DNA of 64,000 bases from IMG/VR virus record IMGVR_UViG_3300028591_000077; one strand, given 5' to 3'. Positions within the stretch are counted from its first letter, which is position 1. Each line of letters starts with the position of its first letter. The DNA is from a virus (Duplodnaviria > Heunggongvirae > Uroviricota > Caudoviricetes). The notes below the pieces were generated by a model. That model was not told where the DNA came from, searched no databases, and was given only the letters and a program-made list of their open reading frames with translations. This document shows, piece after piece, positions 2,741 to 61,319 of this stretch. The translations under genes and the position numbers were made by a program.

Positions 2741-2848
2741 ATGAGACATTCAGTTATTACATTACAACGCACAGCAACAACCGTAGCGACATTAGATATA
2801 GCCGCTGCGATTTTAGACGTGCAAGATTCTGGAGGAATCCACAAGTAA
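2741..2848 (+). CDS. Leader peptide 1 (35 aa, MRHSVITLQRTATTVATLDIAAAILDVQDSGGIHK)
   Basis: Follows GCTAAATT motif; codons 5-29 are only V/I/T/L/Q/R/A/D, matching the downstream tRNAs. Confidence 0.8.
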   Translation: MRHSVITLQRTATTVATLDIAAAILDVQDSGGIHK

Positions 2849-4730: not shown

Positions 4731-4826
4731 GCAGTTGTGATGCAACTTAGAAGACATCCTTGGTGATGAGCCGAGGTCAACGCAAATCGAAATAATTTGT
4801 TGAAGGTGCAAATCCTTCCATCCGCA
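4731..4826 (+). pseudogene. Degenerate class II (Leu-like) tRNA
   Basis: T arm GAAGG-TGCAAAT-CCTTC, mismatched acceptor, non-canonical anticodon loop TGATGAG, no CCA. Confidence 0.5.
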
Positions 4827-4833
4827 ACAATTT

Positions 4834-4908
4834 GGAGTCATAGTACAGCGGTTAGTATACCTGACTGTCACTCAGGAGATGAGGGTTCAACTCCCTCTGG
4901 CTCCGCCA
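4834..4908 (+). tRNA. tRNA-Asp(GTC)
   Basis: Cloverleaf, GCCA end. Confidence 0.95.
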
Positions 4909-5201: not shown

Positions 5202-5313
5202 AAAAAATTATACAATACTATTTACTTTTTAGAAAAAATATTGTATAATATAATAAGCGAGCAAAAAAGATTCGCTAAATTAAGTAGTCGCAAGACAGAA
5301 AGGTAGTTAACGT

Positions 5314-5403
5314 ATGAAAAACTTGAACATGCATGCTTATCATTACGGATTTGAAGGCTATGAAGGCTTCGGTTTTTTGATGCGCTCTGACCACCGATAT
5401 TAA
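5314..5403 (+). CDS. Leader peptide 2 (29 aa, MKNLNMHAYHYGFEGYEGFGFLMRSDHRY)
   Basis: GAAAGG RBS; codons 9-23 are only Y/H/G/F/E/L(TTG)/M, matching the downstream tRNAs. Confidence 0.85.
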   Translation: MKNLNMHAYHYGFEGYEGFGFLMRSDHRY

Positions 5404-7101: not shown

Positions 7102-7243
7102 TTTTTTATTAAAAAATATCGTATTATATAAAGAAACGAAAAATATTCGCTAAATTATTTGGTACTTGTCTTCCTTAGCGGTACGACTTAATCCAGGGAT
7201 ATTCAGGAGATATTACCGATACAAAGATTAAGCAAGAAAGATT

Positions 7244-7645: not shown

Positions 7646-7735
7646 AAAAAAATATTTGTAAAAAAATTAAAAAAATATTTACAAAACAAAAAAAGTATTG
7701 TATAATATTTATGTAAGCAAGTTAAGCAAGCTTGC

Positions 7736-8342
7736 TTCGAGTGTTCTTTGAGAAAGGATTTATGTTGAACCATGTGCAGAGGGATTACCTCCTTGCATGG
7801 AAGTTGGCTAAATAACGCGATAAATTGTGGGATACTGCAATGTAAGCTAAGACCTGTATTGAAAGATACGGGTATTCCTGTCAAAACGTGATCATTGACA
7901 GGCTAAGCTGATTGTGCAACATGTTATGGTACACAAAGCAATTCTGTCTAGGCTCGTCCGATAAGAGGCTCTGGGAGCAATCTCATCCCGCCTGTGGAAT
8001 TAAGCCTGAGAAACTTAGTTCCCGGCATCTCAACCTAAGGATAGTGACGTTTTGAAGCGGCGAAAGCCGTGTATAAGAGCTGACAGAAGTACGAGTAGCC
8101 GTATGACGTCGTTCGATCAAGTATAAAATTGAAGAATGTGATTAATTTCTTCCTTGCTGAAGTTCGGTGAAAGTTGGGGGACATCAATTCCCTCTATTGT
8201 TCGGTGCTAGTCACCAATTTGTGAAGACCAAGGTCGCGCCTTGGCTCTCAGCCACAAGTTAATATGTGCGAATATGTGGAATAATAAGTGTTGTAAGATG
8301 AATAAAAGTCTCGCTTAGATCATTTCTCAAAGAATACTCGAA
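7736..8342 (+). ncRNA. About 600-nt structured ncRNA (ROOL-like candidate)
   Basis: 20-bp terminal helix 7736-7755/8323-8342, promoter immediately upstream, many internal hairpins, no ORF. Confidence 0.65.
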
Positions 8343-8393
8343 AAATAAAATGCTAAATTAATTAGACAAATGTGTCAGAAGGAGAGCAAAAGT

Positions 8394-8480
8394 ATGTTAA
8401 GATTAGCTTCTATCAACGTTAAGCCTATTAGCATTCTCAAACCAGTTTGGGAAAATTTTGACATGCTTGTAGCTCAGTAA
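8394..8480 (+). CDS. Leader peptide 3 (28 aa, MLRLASINVKPISILKPVWENFDMLVAQ)
   Basis: AAGGAG RBS after GCTAAATT; I/V/K/P/W-rich core matches the downstream tRNAs. Confidence 0.8.
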   Translation: MLRLASINVKPISILKPVWENFDMLVAQ

Positions 8481-8518
8481 AGACCGTAAGTCCGATTAAA
8501 TCAATTAGACAAAAGATC

Positions 8519-8553
8519 CCCGCAGAGACTACAAGCTCTGCGGGTTTTATTTT
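8519..8553 (+). terminator. Attenuator terminator 3
   Basis: CCCGCAGAG-ACTACAAG-CTCTGCGGG-TTTTATTTT; 8525-8536 pairs with leader 3 end 8465-8475. Confidence 0.85.
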
Positions 8554-8631
8554 CGGGAAGTAGCGTAGCTTGGTTATCGCGCCTGATTTGGGATCAGGAG
8601 ATCAAGGGTTCGAATCCCTTCTTCCCGACCA
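8554..8631 (+). tRNA. tRNA-Pro(TGG)
   Basis: Canonical cloverleaf. Confidence 0.95.
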
Positions 8632-8632
8632 A

Positions 8633-8747
8633 GAGCTCATACTTATTTCTAGCATTGGGAGCCGGTGTTTGCAGGTTCGAGTCCTGCCTCCCCGACCATT
8701 ATCGGGGAGTAGGCAAATTGGTAAAGCCGCTGTTTAATAGTTGAGCC
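8633..8747 (+). ncRNA. Bulged-stem element 9: circularly permuted tRNA-Pro(TGG)
   Basis: 3' half with CCA at 8652-8698, 5' half CGGGGAG+D arm at 8703-8732; GCTCA/TGAGC stem. Confidence 0.9.
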
Positions 8748-8767
8748 TTAAAAAATCTATTATTATA

Positions 8768-8829
8768 GAGCCTATACTTATTTCCGCCAAGAGGCAATTT
8801 CCTTTTAAGAAATCTATGATAGTTAGGCC
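8768..8829 (+). ncRNA. Bulged-stem element 10 with a Lys(TTT) anticodon stem-loop
   Basis: ATTTC-CT TTT AA-GAAAT at 8797-8813. Confidence 0.8.
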
Positions 8830-8835
8830 ATTAAT

Positions 8836-8911
8836 GGGCTCTTAGCTCAGTTGGGAGAGCATCTCCTTGACGTGGAGAGGGTCGTCAGTTCGAGCCTGGC
8901 AGAGCCCACCA
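8836..8911 (+). tRNA. tRNA-Val(GAC)
   Basis: Cloverleaf, CCA. Confidence 0.95.
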
Positions 8912-9011
8912 TTAATAGAGAATATTAGGAGAAGGAAAACTCCATAAACCCTTATAGCTTCGTTCTTAGCCAGACGTAGACTAAGATAGAGTTAAACTAA
9001 TGATACAATAT

Positions 9012-9088
9012 CCGGAGTTAGTTCAGTTTGGTAGAACACTTGATTTGGGATCAAGGGGTCGTGAGTTCGAATCTCACATTTCGGACCA
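9012..9088 (+). tRNA. tRNA-Pro(TGG)
   Basis: Cloverleaf, CCA. Confidence 0.9.
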
Positions 9089-9092
9089 ATAT

Positions 9093-9169
9093 TGGAGCGT
9101 AGCTCAGTCGGTCAGAGCGCTGTGCTGATAACGCAGAGGTCGCCGGTTCGATCCCGGCCGCTCCAACCA
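9093..9169 (+). tRNA. tRNA-Ile(GAT)
   Basis: Cloverleaf, CCA. Confidence 0.95.
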
Positions 9170-9173
9170 ATAT

Positions 9174-9247
9174 AGGGGCTTGGTATAGTGGCCGTGCCTT
9201 GGTCTCCAAAACCAATGAGGTGAGTTCGATTCTTACAGCCCCTGCCA
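9174..9247 (+). tRNA. tRNA-Trp(CCA)
   Basis: A1:U72, G73, loop CT CCA AA. Confidence 0.9.
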
Positions 9248-9252
9248 AACAT

Positions 9253-9329
9253 ACTCCCTTAGCTCAGCTGGCCAGAGCAACTGACTCTTAATCAGTGGGT
9301 CCAGGGTTCGAATCCCTGAGGGAGTACCA
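9253..9329 (+). tRNA. tRNA-Lys(CTT)
   Basis: Cloverleaf, CCA. Confidence 0.95.
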
Positions 9330-9589: not shown

Positions 9590-9658
9590 ATGATGAAAAT
9601 GACACTAAAACTCAAATCCAAAAAACTCAAACGTTTTCGTTGTGGCTTAATTGCTTAG
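9590..9658 (+). CDS. Leader peptide 4 (22 aa, MMKMTLKLKSKKLKRFRCGLIA)
   Basis: GGAG RBS; six AAA codons plus CTA, CTC x2, TCC. Confidence 0.8.
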   Translation: MMKMTLKLKSKKLKRFRCGLIA

Positions 9659-10870: not shown

Positions 10871-11261
10871 GGGCTCGTACTGGTTTCGATTGGTATTTGA
10901 TGTTTATAACTACAGCAAGCTGATAACTTACTATCAAACAAAAACAAACGACAAAACTTTAAACCCTGCATTTATTGCCTCCAACAGATTCGTTGGTGCT
11001 CGCGCCTAATTTAAGGCCATAGTAGTCGAGAAGTAAAACTGAGTTAGATTGGTCGAGTTTAACTCTTTATAATCAGACCTCGGTCAAGAGAACATTAGCT
11101 TTATTAGATATCTTGATTTAAATCAATAAATAAGCTATCTGCGCGCCCCGTTGTGTTTGAAAAGGAGCGGACAGAGAAATATTCATGAACACATAAAGCT
11201 GTAATTGACGTTATAGGGGTTTGGTATCAAGACCGGGGTTCGACTCCCCGCGGGTCCACCA
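10871..11261 (+). ncRNA. ssrA: tmRNA
   Basis: GGGCTCG...GGTTTCGA 5' end, G3:U acceptor, T arm and CCA 3' end, tag frame ...KTNDKTLNPAFIASNRFVGARA*. Confidence 0.9.
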
Positions 11262-11690: not shown

Positions 11691-11787
11691 AGGGGATTAC
11701 GATAATTGGCAAGTCCGTCGGTCTTCAAAACCGATCAATCCGGCTCCAACCCGGAGAGCGCGGGTTCGATTCCTGCATCCCCTGCCA
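11691..11787 (+). tRNA. UGA-decoding tRNA (anticodon TCA), Trp-like acceptor with long variable arm
   Basis: AGGGGAT/ATCCCCT-G-CCA, TCGGT-CT TCA AA-ACCGA, TCCGG/CCGGA variable stem. Confidence 0.85.
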
Positions 11788-11872: not shown

Positions 11873-12541
11873 ATGAATAAAAGAGTAAAAACGTTTCTAT
11901 TTGCAATTTTTGCCGGTATTGCCATTGGCGTCGGCGGATTGCTTTTTATTTTATCAAAAACATATATTCCAGGTAATTGGGGTAATATTGTCGGTTCGTT
12001 GTTATTCCCGGTTGGATTAATTACAATTTGCTATTGTAAATTTAATTTATATACTGGAAAAATTGGCATTGCTCCAAATAAAGGTGTAAATACTAATGAT
12101 TTGAATGTATTTGAGTGGCTAGCTTGGATTCTATTAGGCAATATTGTCGGAGCGTTTGCCTTTGGATTGTTAGTTTATCCATTCACTTTGCTTGGAGGAA
12201 GCTTCGCCGATACCGTCCATGCTATTGGGTTAGCAAGGGAAACCATGGATCCGATTTCAATGGCTGGAACATCTGTCTTATGCGGAATCTTAGTTTATAT
12301 TGCGGTTTATTTCTTCAATAAGTCTGATGAGTACTTCGGCAAAGTCGTCGGTGTCTTGGTTCCTATTGCGTTCTTCGTATTAGCCGGATTTCAGCACTGC
12401 GTTGCCAATATGTTCTATATGGCGGCTTCTGGTAGTTGGACATTGGCGTCTACTCAAGCACTAGTAGGTTGTATCTTAGGTAATTCTTTCGGTGGATTGC
12501 TTGCCAATTTGCCGGTTGTATATTTTAAAGGAGCTAAATAA
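11873..12541 (+). CDS. Formate/nitrite transporter (FNT, FocA/NirC family)
   Basis: FPVGL...LYTG and AGFQHCVANMFY motifs, multiple TM helices. Confidence 0.9.
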   Translation: MNKRVKTFLFAIFAGIAIGVGGLLFILSKTYIPGNWGNIVGSLLFPVGLITICYCKFNLYTGKIGIAPNKGVNTNDLNVFEWLAWILLGNIVGAFAFGLLVYPFTLLGGSFADTVHAIGLARETMDPISMAGTSVLCGILVYIAVYFFNKSDEYFGKVVGVLVPIAFFVLAGFQHCVANMFYMAASGSWTLASTQALVGCILGNSFGGLLANLPVVYFKGAK

Positions 12542-12827: not shown

Positions 12828-13037
12828 ATGCACGAACTATTGGTTGAGATGTTGATTGTCGGTATTATTGGAATAATCAGCATAGGTGCTGGTTTATGGA
12901 TATTACTTAGAAATTGGCATGAGAAAGATTGGGAAAAACTTAGGATATTCTTTGTAGCCGGAGTAATATTCATGACATTTATGACATCGATATTCGAAAT
13001 CATATGGTTTTGTATGTATATCGGCTTACCAGTTTAA
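12828..13037 (+). CDS. Small two-TM membrane protein
   Basis: Two hydrophobic segments, promoter upstream. Confidence 0.6.
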   Translation: MHELLVEMLIVGIIGIISIGAGLWILLRNWHEKDWEKLRIFFVAGVIFMTFMTSIFEIIWFCMYIGLPV

Positions 13038-13051
13038 AGGAGAATGGAATT

Positions 13052-13168
13052 ATGATAACTATATTGGCAGTTTATGGTATCGGACTAGGGATTTTGAACA
13101 TTTTAACCCTTGGAATTCTATTCTATTTGAAATTTGGTCAAAAATTATTGGCTAAATTAAAACGGTAA
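13052..13168 (+). CDS. Small membrane peptide (38 aa)
   Basis: AAGGAG RBS, hydrophobic. Confidence 0.5.
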   Translation: MITILAVYGIGLGILNILTLGILFYLKFGQKLLAKLKR

Positions 13169-13182
13169 AATATTTACCATTA

Positions 13183-13263
13183 CATAGAAAAAAAGCACAA
13201 CCACAGTGATGTGGCGTCGCAAAGCTATAGGGCCTTGGAGGAAGGCAGCCAGTTGCTTCTGTG
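13183..13263 (+). promoter_or_regulatory. c-di-GMP-I (GEMM) riboswitch
   Basis: GCACAA-CCACA GTGA TGTGG-CGTCGCAAAGCTATAGGGCC...GGCAGCCAGTTGC matches the GEMM core; lies in the 5' UTR of the operon. Confidence 0.8.
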
Positions 13264-13305
13264 AGTTAATCATGGAAGTTTTTTATTTATAAGAAGGAGA
13301 AAACT

Positions 13306-13923
13306 ATGAAATTAAGAAACAAATTAGCAGCTATCACAGCTGCAGCAATGTTAGCATTTACTGGCGTTGGTTTTGCTGCATGGACATTTGCTAATGAAAA
13401 ATCAGCTAATGTTGGTGGAGACAATGTTGTTACTTGTGCAGTTGAAACAAAGAACTTAGTTATTGATGAAGGTTATACTAAATTATATTTAATTTTTGAT
13501 GCGCCAGCAGCTGGAACTACTGGTTCATTAAAGGCTGGTGAAGGTATTTTCTTTGCAACAGATAAAGAGCCAGATGCTGAAACCGGATTATATACTAAAG
13601 TTACATCTCTTACATTAACTGGTTCATTTGAACATACAGATAATGATGCTCATTACAACCATGCAGTAAGTTATACTTTTGATTGCACACCTACTAATAC
13701 TTTAAGTGCTACTTATGTAACACAAACAGCTGCTGGAAGCTTCGATGCAAATGTAACAGGAGCAACTTCAACTTTTACAGATGTTTCAACTGTTTACACA
13801 CTTCCAACATTTGATTATACTGCTGCGGTTAAAGCTTACAATCATGCGTCAGAAATGTCTGCTATGATTACTTCTTTAAATGACTCAGAAGTATCATTTG
13901 CATTTACGTTTAATATTGACTAA
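13306..13923 (+). CDS. Secreted protein with SipW-type signal peptide (TasA/camelysin-like)
   Basis: MKLRNK...GVGFAAWTF N-terminus; adjacent to signal peptidase. Confidence 0.6.
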   Translation: MKLRNKLAAITAAAMLAFTGVGFAAWTFANEKSANVGGDNVVTCAVETKNLVIDEGYTKLYLIFDAPAAGTTGSLKAGEGIFFATDKEPDAETGLYTKVTSLTLTGSFEHTDNDAHYNHAVSYTFDCTPTNTLSATYVTQTAAGSFDANVTGATSTFTDVSTVYTLPTFDYTAAVKAYNHASEMSAMITSLNDSEVSFAFTFNID

Positions 13924-58133: not shown

Positions 58134-58277
58134 ATGGGAACTCGTGAAGAATATGTTCACAGAAGACTAATGGAATTAGCATTTATTGCTGAGACCAGAG
58201 AACTTGATGAAGTTGAAAAAGAAGAAGAAAGACGATTATCAGAAGAGGTTGAATCATTTAAAAAAGAGGAAAAGTAA
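58134..58277 (+). CDS. Small hypothetical protein
   Basis: AGGAG RBS. Confidence 0.55.
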   Translation: MGTREEYVHRRLMELAFIAETRELDEVEKEEERRLSEEVESFKKEEK

Positions 58278-59899
58278 TGAAGAATATTTTAGAAATAACC
58301 AAAGGTCTTGGTATTCCCGAACAATATGTTATACCTATTGGTTGGGATAAAGCTAAGATCGATTTGAAATACAAAGAAGTTTTAAAAAATAAAAAAGATG
58401 GTAAATTAGTTTTAGTTACCGCCATTACTCCAACGAAAGCTGGAGAAGGCAAAACCACAACCACAATTGGTTTACACGATGGTTTACGAAAAATCGGTAT
58501 AAATTCATTAGCTTGTTTACGTGAACCTTCTTTAGGTCCTGTTTGGGGAATTAAAGGTGGTGCTGTTGGTGCCTTAAAATCAACTATTGTCCCAAGTGAT
58601 GATATCAATCTTCATTTTACTGGTGACTATCATGCTTTAACTGCAACTATTAACCTTATTTCTGCAGTTATTGATAATCATATTTATCAAGGTAATGAAC
58701 TTGATTTAGACCCAGAAAATATCGTTTGGAAACGCGCTCTTGACGTTAATGACCGCGCACTTAGAAGTGTCACTGTTGCCCAAGATGACAAGAAAGCTAC
58801 TCCAAGACATGATGAATTCACGATTACAGTCGCATCAGAGTTAATGACTATTTATGTTCTTTCTGAGACTGAAGAAGAATTCATGGAAAGAGTTAACAAC
58901 GTTCTTATTGCCTATAATAGAAAAGGTGAACCTGTCTATCTCAAAGACCTTCATATCTCTAAAGCATTATTAAAGATGATGAAGACTGCAATGAGCCCAA
59001 ATGTTGTTCAAACCTTAGAAGAGAATCCTGTTCTTGTTCACGGCGGACCATTCGCTAATATCTCTATCGGCGTTAACTCTGTTAATGCTACAAAAATGGC
59101 TCTTAAAATGGCTGATGTTGTAGTCACTGAAGCAGGATTCGGTTCTGACCTCGGTGCTGAAAAATTCCTTGACATCAAATGTCAAAAAGCAGGAATTCAT
59201 CCAAATGCAATCGTTTTAGTTGCTACTGCCAGAGCTCTTAAACTTCATGGTGGTGTTAAATTTGAAGACCTTGAAAAAGAGAATATCGAGGCCATTAAAG
59301 CTGGTATCTGTAACTTAAAAAAGCATGCGGAAAATGCCGTTAAATATGGTGTTCCAGTTGTAATCTCCATCAATAGATTCCCAAGTGATACTGATGCTGA
59401 AGTTGACACTATTATGAACTGGTGTGATGAAAATGGTTTCTTAGCCGCTGTTAATACTGCTGCATTAGAAGGTGGTATCGGAGGCGAAGCTCTTGCCAAT
59501 TTAGTTATGTTCGTTTTAGCTGGACAAGAAGCTGAAATTGAATTTTATAAAGATAACTTTAAGCCACTTTATAAATGGGATGAGCCTATTTTAGATAAAA
59601 TATCTAAGATTTGCACAGAAATTTATGGTGCTGGCAATGTTGAGTATACGGATGAAGCCAAAGAACAAATTGCTAAATATGAAGCAATGGGTTATGGCAA
59701 ATTACCTGTTTGTGTATCTAAGACCCCTAATTCATTAACAGATGATGCAAAGATTTTAGGCGCTCCAACCGGATTCACCATTCACATCAGAGAGGTTAGA
59801 TTATACTCTGGTGCAGGCTTAATTGTTCCTCTCTCAGGAAGCTTACTATTAATGCCAGGTCTTCCAAAAGAGCCACGTTGCTTAGATAAATTTAATTAG
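58277..59899 (+). CDS. fhs: Formate--tetrahydrofolate ligase
   Basis: TPTKAGEGKTTT, GIKGGA, INLHFTGD, HGGPFANI, VTEAGFG.DLGAEKF, MPGLPK. Confidence 0.97.
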   Translation: MKNILEITKGLGIPEQYVIPIGWDKAKIDLKYKEVLKNKKDGKLVLVTAITPTKAGEGKTTTTIGLHDGLRKIGINSLACLREPSLGPVWGIKGGAVGALKSTIVPSDDINLHFTGDYHALTATINLISAVIDNHIYQGNELDLDPENIVWKRALDVNDRALRSVTVAQDDKKATPRHDEFTITVASELMTIYVLSETEEEFMERVNNVLIAYNRKGEPVYLKDLHISKALLKMMKTAMSPNVVQTLEENPVLVHGGPFANISIGVNSVNATKMALKMADVVVTEAGFGSDLGAEKFLDIKCQKAGIHPNAIVLVATARALKLHGGVKFEDLEKENIEAIKAGICNLKKHAENAVKYGVPVVISINRFPSDTDAEVDTIMNWCDENGFLAAVNTAALEGGIGGEALANLVMFVLAGQEAEIEFYKDNFKPLYKWDEPILDKISKICTEIYGAGNVEYTDEAKEQIAKYEAMGYGKLPVCVSKTPNSLTDDAKILGAPTGFTIHIREVRLYSGAGLIVPLSGSLLLMPGLPKEPRCLDKFN

Positions 59900-60361: not shown

Positions 60362-60521
60362 TTATGGGAAAACAATATACTAAATGCGATTTCTGCAGTT
60401 TCCACACAGCATCTGGCTGTAGTGCTAGACCAGATTCTCATTATTGCAAAGAGGCTCTTGATGAGTTCTATGCATGGCTAAGAGAACAAAGAGGCAATAA
60501 AAATAAAGGACGAAGATAACT

Positions 60522-61319
60522 ATGCAAATAATTAAAGAATACGTTGAAGAAAAGAAAGAAAAACTTAAGCACACTATCTCTGAGGCTGATAATATTAAAA
60601 TGGTCATCATTCAGGTAGGCCATGTCCCAGCTTCCGATAGATATGTAAGAAATAAAATAAAAGATGCTGAATCTGTTGGTATCTTATGCGAATTGAACAA
60701 TCTTCCAGAAGATATTACCGAAGAAGCATTATTAAAGTTAATGGAAGGCTTAAATCACGATGATGCCGTTACTGGTTATCTCGTTCAACTTCCACTCCCA
60801 AAGCATATCAGTGAAGAAAAAGTTAAGTTAGCCATTGCTCCTGAAAAAGATATTGATGGCTTCCATCCATTATCAAAAACAGTTCCGGCAACGCCATTAG
60901 GAATCTATAATTACCTTAAAGATATGAATTATGAATTCCTTGGAAAAAACGCAGTTGTTATTGGCCGTTCAAATATCGTTGGTAAACCTATGGCACAATT
61001 GCTTTTAAAAGAAAGCATGAACGTAACGGTTCTTCATTCAAAGACCAAATATGAGGATAAGCTTTATTACCTTAGAAATGCAGATTTAATTGTTGTGGCT
61101 ACTGGCCATATGAAAACATTAACTGTTGAAGAGGTTAGCTTAAATGTCAAGCCTGATGCCATCGTATTTGATGTTGGAATCAATGTTAAAGAAGATGGTA
61201 AGTTAGCAGGAGACTGCGAAAAAGACTTACCAGTTGCATTCCAAAGTCCAGTCCCTGGTGGTGTCGGTCTATTGACGAGAATCGCAGTTATCGATAATCT
61301 ATTAGAGCTTAGAAAATAA
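60522..61319 (+). CDS. folD: Methylene-THF dehydrogenase/cyclohydrolase
   Basis: YVRNK, VQLPLP, KDIDGFHP, GRSNIVGKP, SPVPGGVG. Confidence 0.95.
   Translation: MQIIKEYVEEKKEKLKHTISEADNIKMVIIQVGHVPASDRYVRNKIKDAESVGILCELNNLPEDITEEALLKLMEGLNHDDAVTGYLVQLPLPKHISEEKVKLAIAPEKDIDGFHPLSKTVPATPLGIYNYLKDMNYEFLGKNAVVIGRSNIVGKPMAQLLLKESMNVTVLHSKTKYEDKLYYLRNADLIVVATGHMKTLTVEEVSLNVKPDAIVFDVGINVKEDGKLAGDCEKDLPVAFQSPVPGGVGLLTRIAVIDNLLELRK

Follow-up and report, generated by a model that had tools for sequence, protein, structure and literature searches.

The leader peptides of enterobacterial amino-acid operons, with trpL as the prototype and ilvL (of ilvGMEDA) and thrL as multivalent forms, are attenuators of transcription. 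Leader-peptide attenuation is known for amino-acid biosynthesis, for some synthetase genes, and for resistance genes; we know of no instance in which it controls tRNA genes. A full-text literature search, incomplete in its coverage, returned no report of tRNA genes controlled in this way, and the novelty of such an arrangement is thus unproven.

Here we describe leader 3, a short transcribed region within the tRNA array of a rumen giant phage. The phage is represented by a stretch of 64,000 nt (hereafter the window), which carries 43 tRNA genes and a tmRNA together with tail-fibre, topoisomerase, and metabolic genes, and the sequence of which is contained in sheep and bovine gut metagenome runs. 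We propose, with a probability of roughly two in three, that leader 3, about 180 nt in all, acts as a ribosome-mediated (leader-peptide) transcription attenuator for a cluster of phage tRNA genes.

The likeness to ilvL, thrL, and trpL is one of design. Leader 3 has a short ORF, led by a Shine-Dalgarno sequence and with a suggestive enrichment in several regulatory codons; its three overlapping helices follow the order 1:2, 2:3, 3:4 and end in an intrinsic terminator; its stop codon is so placed that a terminating ribosome would mask region 2; and its antiterminator, somewhat weaker than or equal to the terminator, would rely on earlier synthesis. It differs from the enterobacterial leaders in that the genes it appears to gate encode tRNAs and not biosynthetic enzymes, in that its region 1 includes the start codon itself, and in that its antiterminator invades the loop and both arms of the terminator rather than just the 5′ arm; it has no sequence similarity to them. 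With T-box riboswitches the phage leader would share a terminator/antiterminator decision that reports tRNA status. T-boxes, however, lack an ORF, contact uncharged tRNA directly by means of a specifier loop and the T-box motif, and regulate aminoacyl-tRNA synthetase and amino-acid genes, whereas the phage leader possesses an ORF that bears a coding signature. For want of an Rfam match, both a T-box and a known leader family were rejected as readings: the His, Thr, Leu, Trp, and Phe leader families and the T-box gave none between 7600 and 8700 of the window at E ≤ 1, and the leader families and T-box gave none at gathering score in the related contigs L136 and L142.

A further comparison is offered by attenuator RNAs of the rnTrpL type, which establish that a terminated leader transcript can be a functional RNA (PMC6614838). 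The default terminated product of the phage leader would similarly contain a known RNA, ROOL. The phage case differs in that ROOL appears to be trimmed to 7763-8271 and in that no action of the terminated leader in trans is indicated.

Results

Organization of the Leader 3 Locus

The elements of the locus, with their window coordinates and strand, are the following.

7678..7706, + strand: strong sigma-70-type promoter, TTTACA-17-TATAAT, 11/12 consensus matches
7746..8331, + strand: ROOL RNA, Rfam RF03087, 210.2 bits against a gathering score of 99.1, model positions 1-574
8340..8365, + strand: conserved 5′ block ..GCTAAATTAA.., with ..ATTCGCTAAATTAA.. at about 8350-8362, recurring early in leader transcripts of this phage and its relatives
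8380..8384, + strand: Shine-Dalgarno sequence AGGAG, 9 nt before the ATG
8390..8404, + strand: region 1, 5′ strand of helix P1 (anti-antiterminator), holding the start codon; from the MFE fold
8394..8480, + strand: leader ORF of 28 codons plus stop, ATG at 8394 and TAA at 8478-8480, peptide MLRLASINVKPISILKPVWENFDMLVAQ
8454..8468, + strand: region 2a, 3′ strand of P1, codons N21 to L25; from the MFE fold and the alignment
8465..8475, + strand: region 2b, 5′ strand of the antiterminator, last codons of the ORF; extended pairing 8457-8479
8519..8544, + strand: intrinsic terminator hairpin, stem 8519-8527/8536-8544 of 9 bp (7 GC), 8-nt loop
8525-8536, + strand: 3′ strand of the antiterminator, comprising the terminator loop and adjoining bases; covaries with the ORF end
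8545..8553, + strand: U-tract TTTTATTTT, running up to the first base of tRNA-Pro
8554..9329, + strand: tRNA cluster Pro/Val/Pro/Ile/Trp/Lys, from ARAGORN and Rfam tRNA matches; starts at 8554 (Pro-TGG), 8836 (Val-GAC), 9012 (Pro-TGG), 9093 (Ile-GAT), 9174 (Trp-CCA), and 9253 (Lys-CTT)

The first-pass annotation of leader 3 passed over the ROOL RNA, which is full-length, sits inside the tRNA array, and separates the leader ORF from the nearest strong promoter. A terminator scan of the window found no further terminator between ROOL and the hairpin at 8519, and the promoter at 7678-7706 is the likely start of a ROOL-leader transcription unit that would include leader 3. Promoters of the same TTTACA-17-TATAAT type precede the homologous leaders in the related phages L136 and G006, which are described below.

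The first-pass annotation placed tRNA-Pro immediately after the U-tract, and so it is: the tract ends at 8553 and the tRNA starts at 8554. The abutment leaves no space for a separate tRNA promoter downstream of the terminator, and that reading was rejected. Because the tRNA either abuts the U-tract, as here, or begins 11 nt past the stem, as in the relatives, transcription of the cluster must pass the terminator.

The ..ATTCGCTAAATTAA.. block recurs in the window at about 2727-2740, 5272-5285, and 7145-7158 in addition to 8350-8362, and in the relatives at 13162, 16427, and 18703 of L136 and at 1429 of L140. It often lies about 25 nt past the -10 element of a TTTACA-17-TATAAT promoter and may serve to bind a factor, to direct processing, or as a phage-type promoter element. 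An 11-nt direct repeat, AATTAGACAAA (8360 and 8503), is within the level expected by chance for the window. Another motif, AGAGC(C/T)(T/C)ATACTTATTTC, is found at 8633-8650, where it opens bulged-stem or permuted-tRNA-like elements; it is common to both divergent relatives (L136 at 16505 and 17620, L140 at 1484), and there it lies within the 5′ part of the leader-3 transcript, in the place where the window has ROOL.

Elsewhere in the window are a tmRNA (10871-11261), a formate/nitrite transporter family gene (11873-12541; Pfam E 1.9e-33), and a formate-tetrahydrofolate ligase gene (58277-59899; Pfam E 1.7e-214). A c-di-GMP-I riboswitch aptamer at 13184-13260 stands directly upstream of the ORF 13306-13923 and is kept in the 64%-identity relative L136, at 4787-4863 (Rfam 46.8 and 49.1 bits, respectively).

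Homologous Leaders in Related Phages

Two contigs nearly identical to the window, L009 (95% identity) and L010 (98%), carry leader 3 almost unchanged. In L009 the Shine-Dalgarno sequence is weakened (AAGGAG to AAAGAG) and the ORF shows one synonymous change; in L010 and in run X3 the substitution U8537C creates an A.C mismatch in the terminator stem.

Two more divergent relatives were obtained by different routes. L136 is an ENA scaffold whose copy of a 651-aa neighbour protein is 64% identical to that of the window, and G006 (also L140) is an IMG/VR contig detected with a degenerate pattern that combined the window and L136 sequences. Both possess a homologous ORF led by a Shine-Dalgarno sequence, with the motif VKP..[KR]P..DML and a stop three codons after DML; the encoded peptides are MFNFVKTVTVKPTAARPAAILDMLINF (L136) and MLNLVAKTVKPTATARPAVLVNFDMLTNF (G006). 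ORFs of the leader-3 family are 27-29 codons long, and the AAGGAG sequence is kept in both L136 and G006. Alignment gaps within the ORF are all multiples of three, the Shine-Dalgarno sequence, ATG, and frame are aligned in every lineage, and the distance of the stop codon from the antiterminator strand is constant across lineages. In L136 and G006 the ORF is followed after 26-27 nt by a terminator, with tRNA Ala-TGC starting 11 nt past the stem, and in all three lineages the terminator abuts a tRNA. ROOL is absent from the homologous units of L136 and G006 in an Rfam search.

The relatives seem to use recoded stop codons. A called 213-aa gene in the tRNA-Ala/tRNA-Thr interval of L136 (16885-17526) has in-frame TGA codons, and the homologues of the window's 67-aa protein in L011-L013 translate only with TAG=Q. 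The window has a tRNA with anticodon TCA at 11691-11787, which is called SeC.

Among the relatives found, the leader-3 family occurs in three lineages only. A motif search of ~300 kb of related phage DNA returned leader-3 ORFs and nothing more. The more distant tRNA-array relatives G001, G003, and L006 contain no terminator-before-tRNA units; following the 651-aa upstream protein led to the same arrays (L005/G001, G003, and L006, with tRNA genes and no such units), to L133 (85% identity), which stops before the array, and to L134 and L135, which have other genes downstream. The 67-aa and 131-aa downstream proteins had no relatives in IMG/VR, and those relatives of the 67-aa protein that databases do contain are on contigs that end short of the leader.

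Neither a 26-mer from the terminator nor a 38-mer from tRNA-Pro had an exact match in IMG/VR, and blastn against 50,697 phage records detected nothing beyond tRNA-level similarity. A metagenome scan with the anticodon arm of tRNA-Pro, a pattern too common to discriminate, returned at least 119 matches, all of them unrelated tRNA loci and none ROOL- or leader-like. Scanning genome contigs for the leader motif gave 17 matches, all by chance inside genes, and a relaxed IMG/VR scan (start region, DML, and T-run) gave 34, the sole real one being the known L140.

Covariation of the ORF End with the Terminator Loop

The last codons of the ORF can pair with the terminator in the manner proposed by the first-pass annotation: 8465-8472 is fully complementary to 8529-8536 and, after a 1-nt bulge (A8528), 8473-8475 pairs with 8525-8527. 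The energy of this antiterminator duplex in the window is -17.9 kcal/mol; when the ORF end was shuffled by dinucleotides, the value was -11.5 ± 2.7. The corresponding duplexes of the relatives have -17.0 and -17.6 kcal/mol, and all three equal in strength their own terminators, which have -16.9 (the window's hairpin), -16.5, and -17.4 kcal/mol. Shuffles equalling the antiterminator duplex numbered 54, 7, and 5 of 2000 in the three cases (p about 0.03, 0.004, and 0.003).

It is the comparison among lineages that argues most directly for this pairing. The terminator loops all differ, being ACTACAAG in the window, TTAATAAG in L136, and TTTGTAAG in G006, as do the terminator stems (CCCGCAGAG, GCCGTGAATG, and CCGCAGGCG), and yet each loop complements its own ORF end exactly (GTAG in the window, ATTAA and ACAAA in the relatives). 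When the pairing was scored on an anchor-based table and on a MAFFT alignment, 8/8 core antiterminator pairs were kept, with 100% of positions paired in five sequences from three lineages, and four of these pairs show compensatory double changes. Sliding the partner strand by one to three columns, as a control, left 22-46% paired and zero or one covarying pair. The first-pass annotation would have been refuted by homologous loci in which the loop had lost its complementarity to the leader end; in L136 and G006 this complementarity is kept. For a set of so few sequences, the comparative evidence is remarkably clean.

Correspondence between Leader Codons and Downstream tRNA Genes

The core of the ORF, codons 7-19 (8412-8450; I N V K P I S I L K P V W), specifies Ile, Val, Lys, Pro, or Trp at 10/13 positions, as the first-pass annotation had counted. 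Taken whole, the ORF matches its own cluster at 11/27 codons by amino acid (expected 7.1, p=0.07) and at 8/27 under strict wobble (expected 4.5, p=0.065), a match that ranks 6 of 21 small plus-strand ORFs in the array; for the central codons lying outside both helices the count is 10/16 (p=0.002). Core codons that the cluster leaves unmatched are Ser AGC, Leu CTC, Asn AAC, and Glu GAA, and the AAA codon (K16) belongs to the next cluster. The codon bias of leader 3 in the window alone is therefore suggestive and not significant. It gains weight because of the homologues, whose central segments match at 12/15 (p=1e-5) and 14/17 (p=3e-5) codons.

The conserved V, K/R, and P residues correspond to Val-GAC, Lys, and Pro-TGG tRNAs present downstream in all three. 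At the variable positions, L136 and G006 have Ala/Thr ahead of Ala and Thr tRNAs, and the window has Ile/Ser/Leu/Trp ahead of Ile-GAT and Trp-CCA; the window's Ala and Thr tRNAs stand behind a different leader. Comparison of three lineages thus suggests, short of proving it statistically, that the variable part of the peptide tracks the downstream tRNA genes.

Leader 3 is one of nine leader/cluster units in the three phages, of which the window has four, L136 three, and G006 two. The further leader ORFs of the window (2741-2848, 5314-5403, and 9590-9658) match their own clusters with p from 1e-4 to 0.02, and those of the relatives (13221-13355 and 18247-18327 in L136; 44283-44408 and about 60505-60585 in G006) also match theirs. 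Each leader was scored against all the clusters in its genome, the background being taken from the long ORFs of the window. All nine matched their own cluster best, both by amino acid and under strict wobble (9/9; chance 3.6e-5), and the Fisher combined p for the nine is about 1e-14.

Two of the other leaders merit a separate word. In L136 and G006, homologues of leader 4 (MMKMTLKLKSKK..) precede Arg-TCT/Lys tRNAs; these homologues are richer in AGA and AAA/AAG codons, and their ORF ends (..GGCTTAA..) remain complementary to their own terminator loops. In leader 1 the terminator is followed by a promoter, and the antiterminator pairing of this leader was not significant (219/1000 shuffles). 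In L136 the interval from a strong promoter to leader 1 contains ~170 nt of G+C-rich, apparently structured sequence (12984-13160) that is without an Rfam match and stands where ROOL stands in the window.

Helix P1 and Folding under Ribosome Masks

The P1 duplex pairs the start region with codons N21 to L25 at -24.2 kcal/mol, and in the window 0/2000 shuffles were as good. In the alignment 96% of P1 cells are paired, with one compensatory and three one-sided changes. The segment 8332-8553 as a whole folds with z = -4.6. Since P1 overlaps the antiterminator strand, the three helices take the classical 1:2, 2:3, 3:4 layout.

The leaders were also folded with ribosome footprints masked. Because equilibrium folding never makes the antiterminator the MFE structure in the presence of the full terminator, forced states were compared. 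Free of ribosomes, the combination of terminator and P1 is 12-20 kcal/mol better than any antiterminator state (12 in the window). With the A site anywhere from codon 21 through the stop, the antiterminator strand is covered and the antiterminator state is impossible. Only when one ribosome was stalled at codons 12-20 while another occupied the start region did the antiterminator state approach the terminator state, to 1-2 kcal/mol for the window and G006; for L136 the gap under these conditions was 6-9 kcal/mol. According to these models, codon-specific rescue at codons 12-20 would presuppose that second ribosome on the start region.

In all masked folds the terminator wins at equilibrium. 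The 3′ strand of the antiterminator emerges only about 9 nt ahead of the 3′ arm of the terminator, and the antiterminator attacks the loop and upper stem, not the base of the stem. The switch would rest on this head start, much as the trp attenuator relies on its antiterminator being made first.

Transcripts in RNA Libraries

The RNA libraries are represented by contigs, which cannot show transcript 3′ ends or the level of read-through. In two sheep-gut RNA libraries ROOL has a depth of about 150-600 and the leader region a depth of 4 or none, a difference of more than 100-fold. One RNA contig corresponds exactly to 7763-8271, with a depth of about 594 and adapter sequence at both ends, and the RNA contigs of a second study likewise start at 7763. 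These data show that ROOL accumulates as a discrete, stable RNA, and they hint at defined mature ends within the outer helix of the Rfam model.

A contig spanning 8292-8674 crosses the terminator into tRNA-Pro. Molecules that span the terminator thus exist, which is compatible with read-through and is no proof of it. In run X7 RNA cover is absent over 8358-8534, a gap that, in contig data, has no evidential value.

Discussion

The interpretation of leader 3 as a leader-peptide attenuator, already put forward in the first-pass annotation, is supported by the homologous loci, the covariation of the loop, the conserved ORF, and the correspondence between codons and tRNAs. We suggest that it would work as follows. 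A transcript starting at the promoter at 7678-7706 would run through ROOL and then present the ORF and three mutually exclusive helices, namely P1 (8390-8404/8454-8468), the antiterminator (8465-8475/8525-8536), and the terminator (8519-8544, with its U-tract). If the leader were untranslated, P1 would lock region 2, the terminator would form, and transcription would stop one base before tRNA-Pro. If translation were smooth, a ribosome at the stop codon would cover the antiterminator strand, and the terminator would form again; the default, in other words, would be termination just before tRNA-Pro. Scarcity of the cognate charged tRNAs would stall the ribosome at about codons 12-20 (I S I L K P V W E), and a trailing ribosome on the start region during the stall would leave the antiterminator strand free. 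That strand could then pair with the emerging loop, RNA polymerase would read into the Pro/Val/Ile/Trp/Lys tRNA genes, and the supply of tRNA would be driven by demand. The trigger may be a scarcity of tRNA, in a host that lacks or destroys it, or amino-acid starvation, two conditions that sequence cannot separate. Should the host be a Firmicute, the coupling of transcription to translation may be loose.

A less specific device would use the same parts. The helices could form a general switch for translation status, sensing the overall availability or speed of ribosomes and not particular tRNAs, with the codon likeness incidental. Such a switch would be at ease with the whole-ORF match of leader 3 (p=0.07, rank 6 of 21) and with core codons (AGC, CTC, AAC, AAA, GAA) that the gated cluster does not read; K-P and R-P dipeptides, which by their nature are translated slowly, are conserved in the leader and could set the timing regardless of tRNA supply. 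We nevertheless think it unlikely, as an incidental likeness does not sit well with nine of nine leaders in three phages fitting their own clusters best (chance 3.6e-5), or with Ala/Thr residues being exchanged for Ile/Trp along with the downstream tRNA genes.

We give rather less credence to the view that the hairpin is simply the constitutive terminator of a ROOL unit, the ORF being untranslated and the tRNAs being reached through leaky read-through or a timed phage antitermination factor. Immediately upstream is ROOL, preceded by a strong promoter and separated from the hairpin by no other terminator; its depth exceeds that of the leader more than 100-fold in two RNA libraries, and the block common to all leader transcripts could be the site of a protein or factor. 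Yet a plain terminator leaves unexplained why the Shine-Dalgarno sequence, ATG, frame, and stop position are conserved, why the ORF end and the loop show compensatory changes in three lineages, and why P1 lies over the start codon and the codons correspond to the tRNAs; moreover, L136 and G006 have homologous units without ROOL. Most improbable of all, in our judgment, is that the ORF encodes a small functional peptide of 27-29 residues (VKP..[KR]P..DML), the helices tuning translation or mRNA stability and the terminator ending the mRNA. The motif is conserved across three lineages and the L009 ORF differs by a single synonymous change, as would befit a functional peptide, but the conserved residues are those whose codons are paired in RNA (DML, in P1 and the antiterminator) or matched by tRNAs (V, K/R, P), the remainder are replaced wholesale between lineages, and a stand-alone gene would have no need of a tRNA abutting its terminator in every lineage.

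The attenuator reading can be extended from leader 3 to the array. In our estimation the chances are about even that each tRNA block of these phages is preceded by a codon-matched attenuator, that the leaders co-evolve with the tRNAs they gate, that a block is transcribed only on stalling, and that ROOL is, in the present phage, the default terminated product of one such unit. If this is true, stalling, for example after depletion or cleavage of host tRNA, would switch on the block, and expression of ROOL, a nanocage RNA, would be tied to the same termination decision; a large RNA would thus have its place inside a translation-sensing transcription unit. The leaders would further serve as a readable annotation of the tRNAs that the phage treats as one unit. 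Regulation of phage tRNAs by decoding demand would bear on the question of why phages carry tRNA arrays and on how they may answer the depletion of host tRNA or the action of anticodon nucleases.
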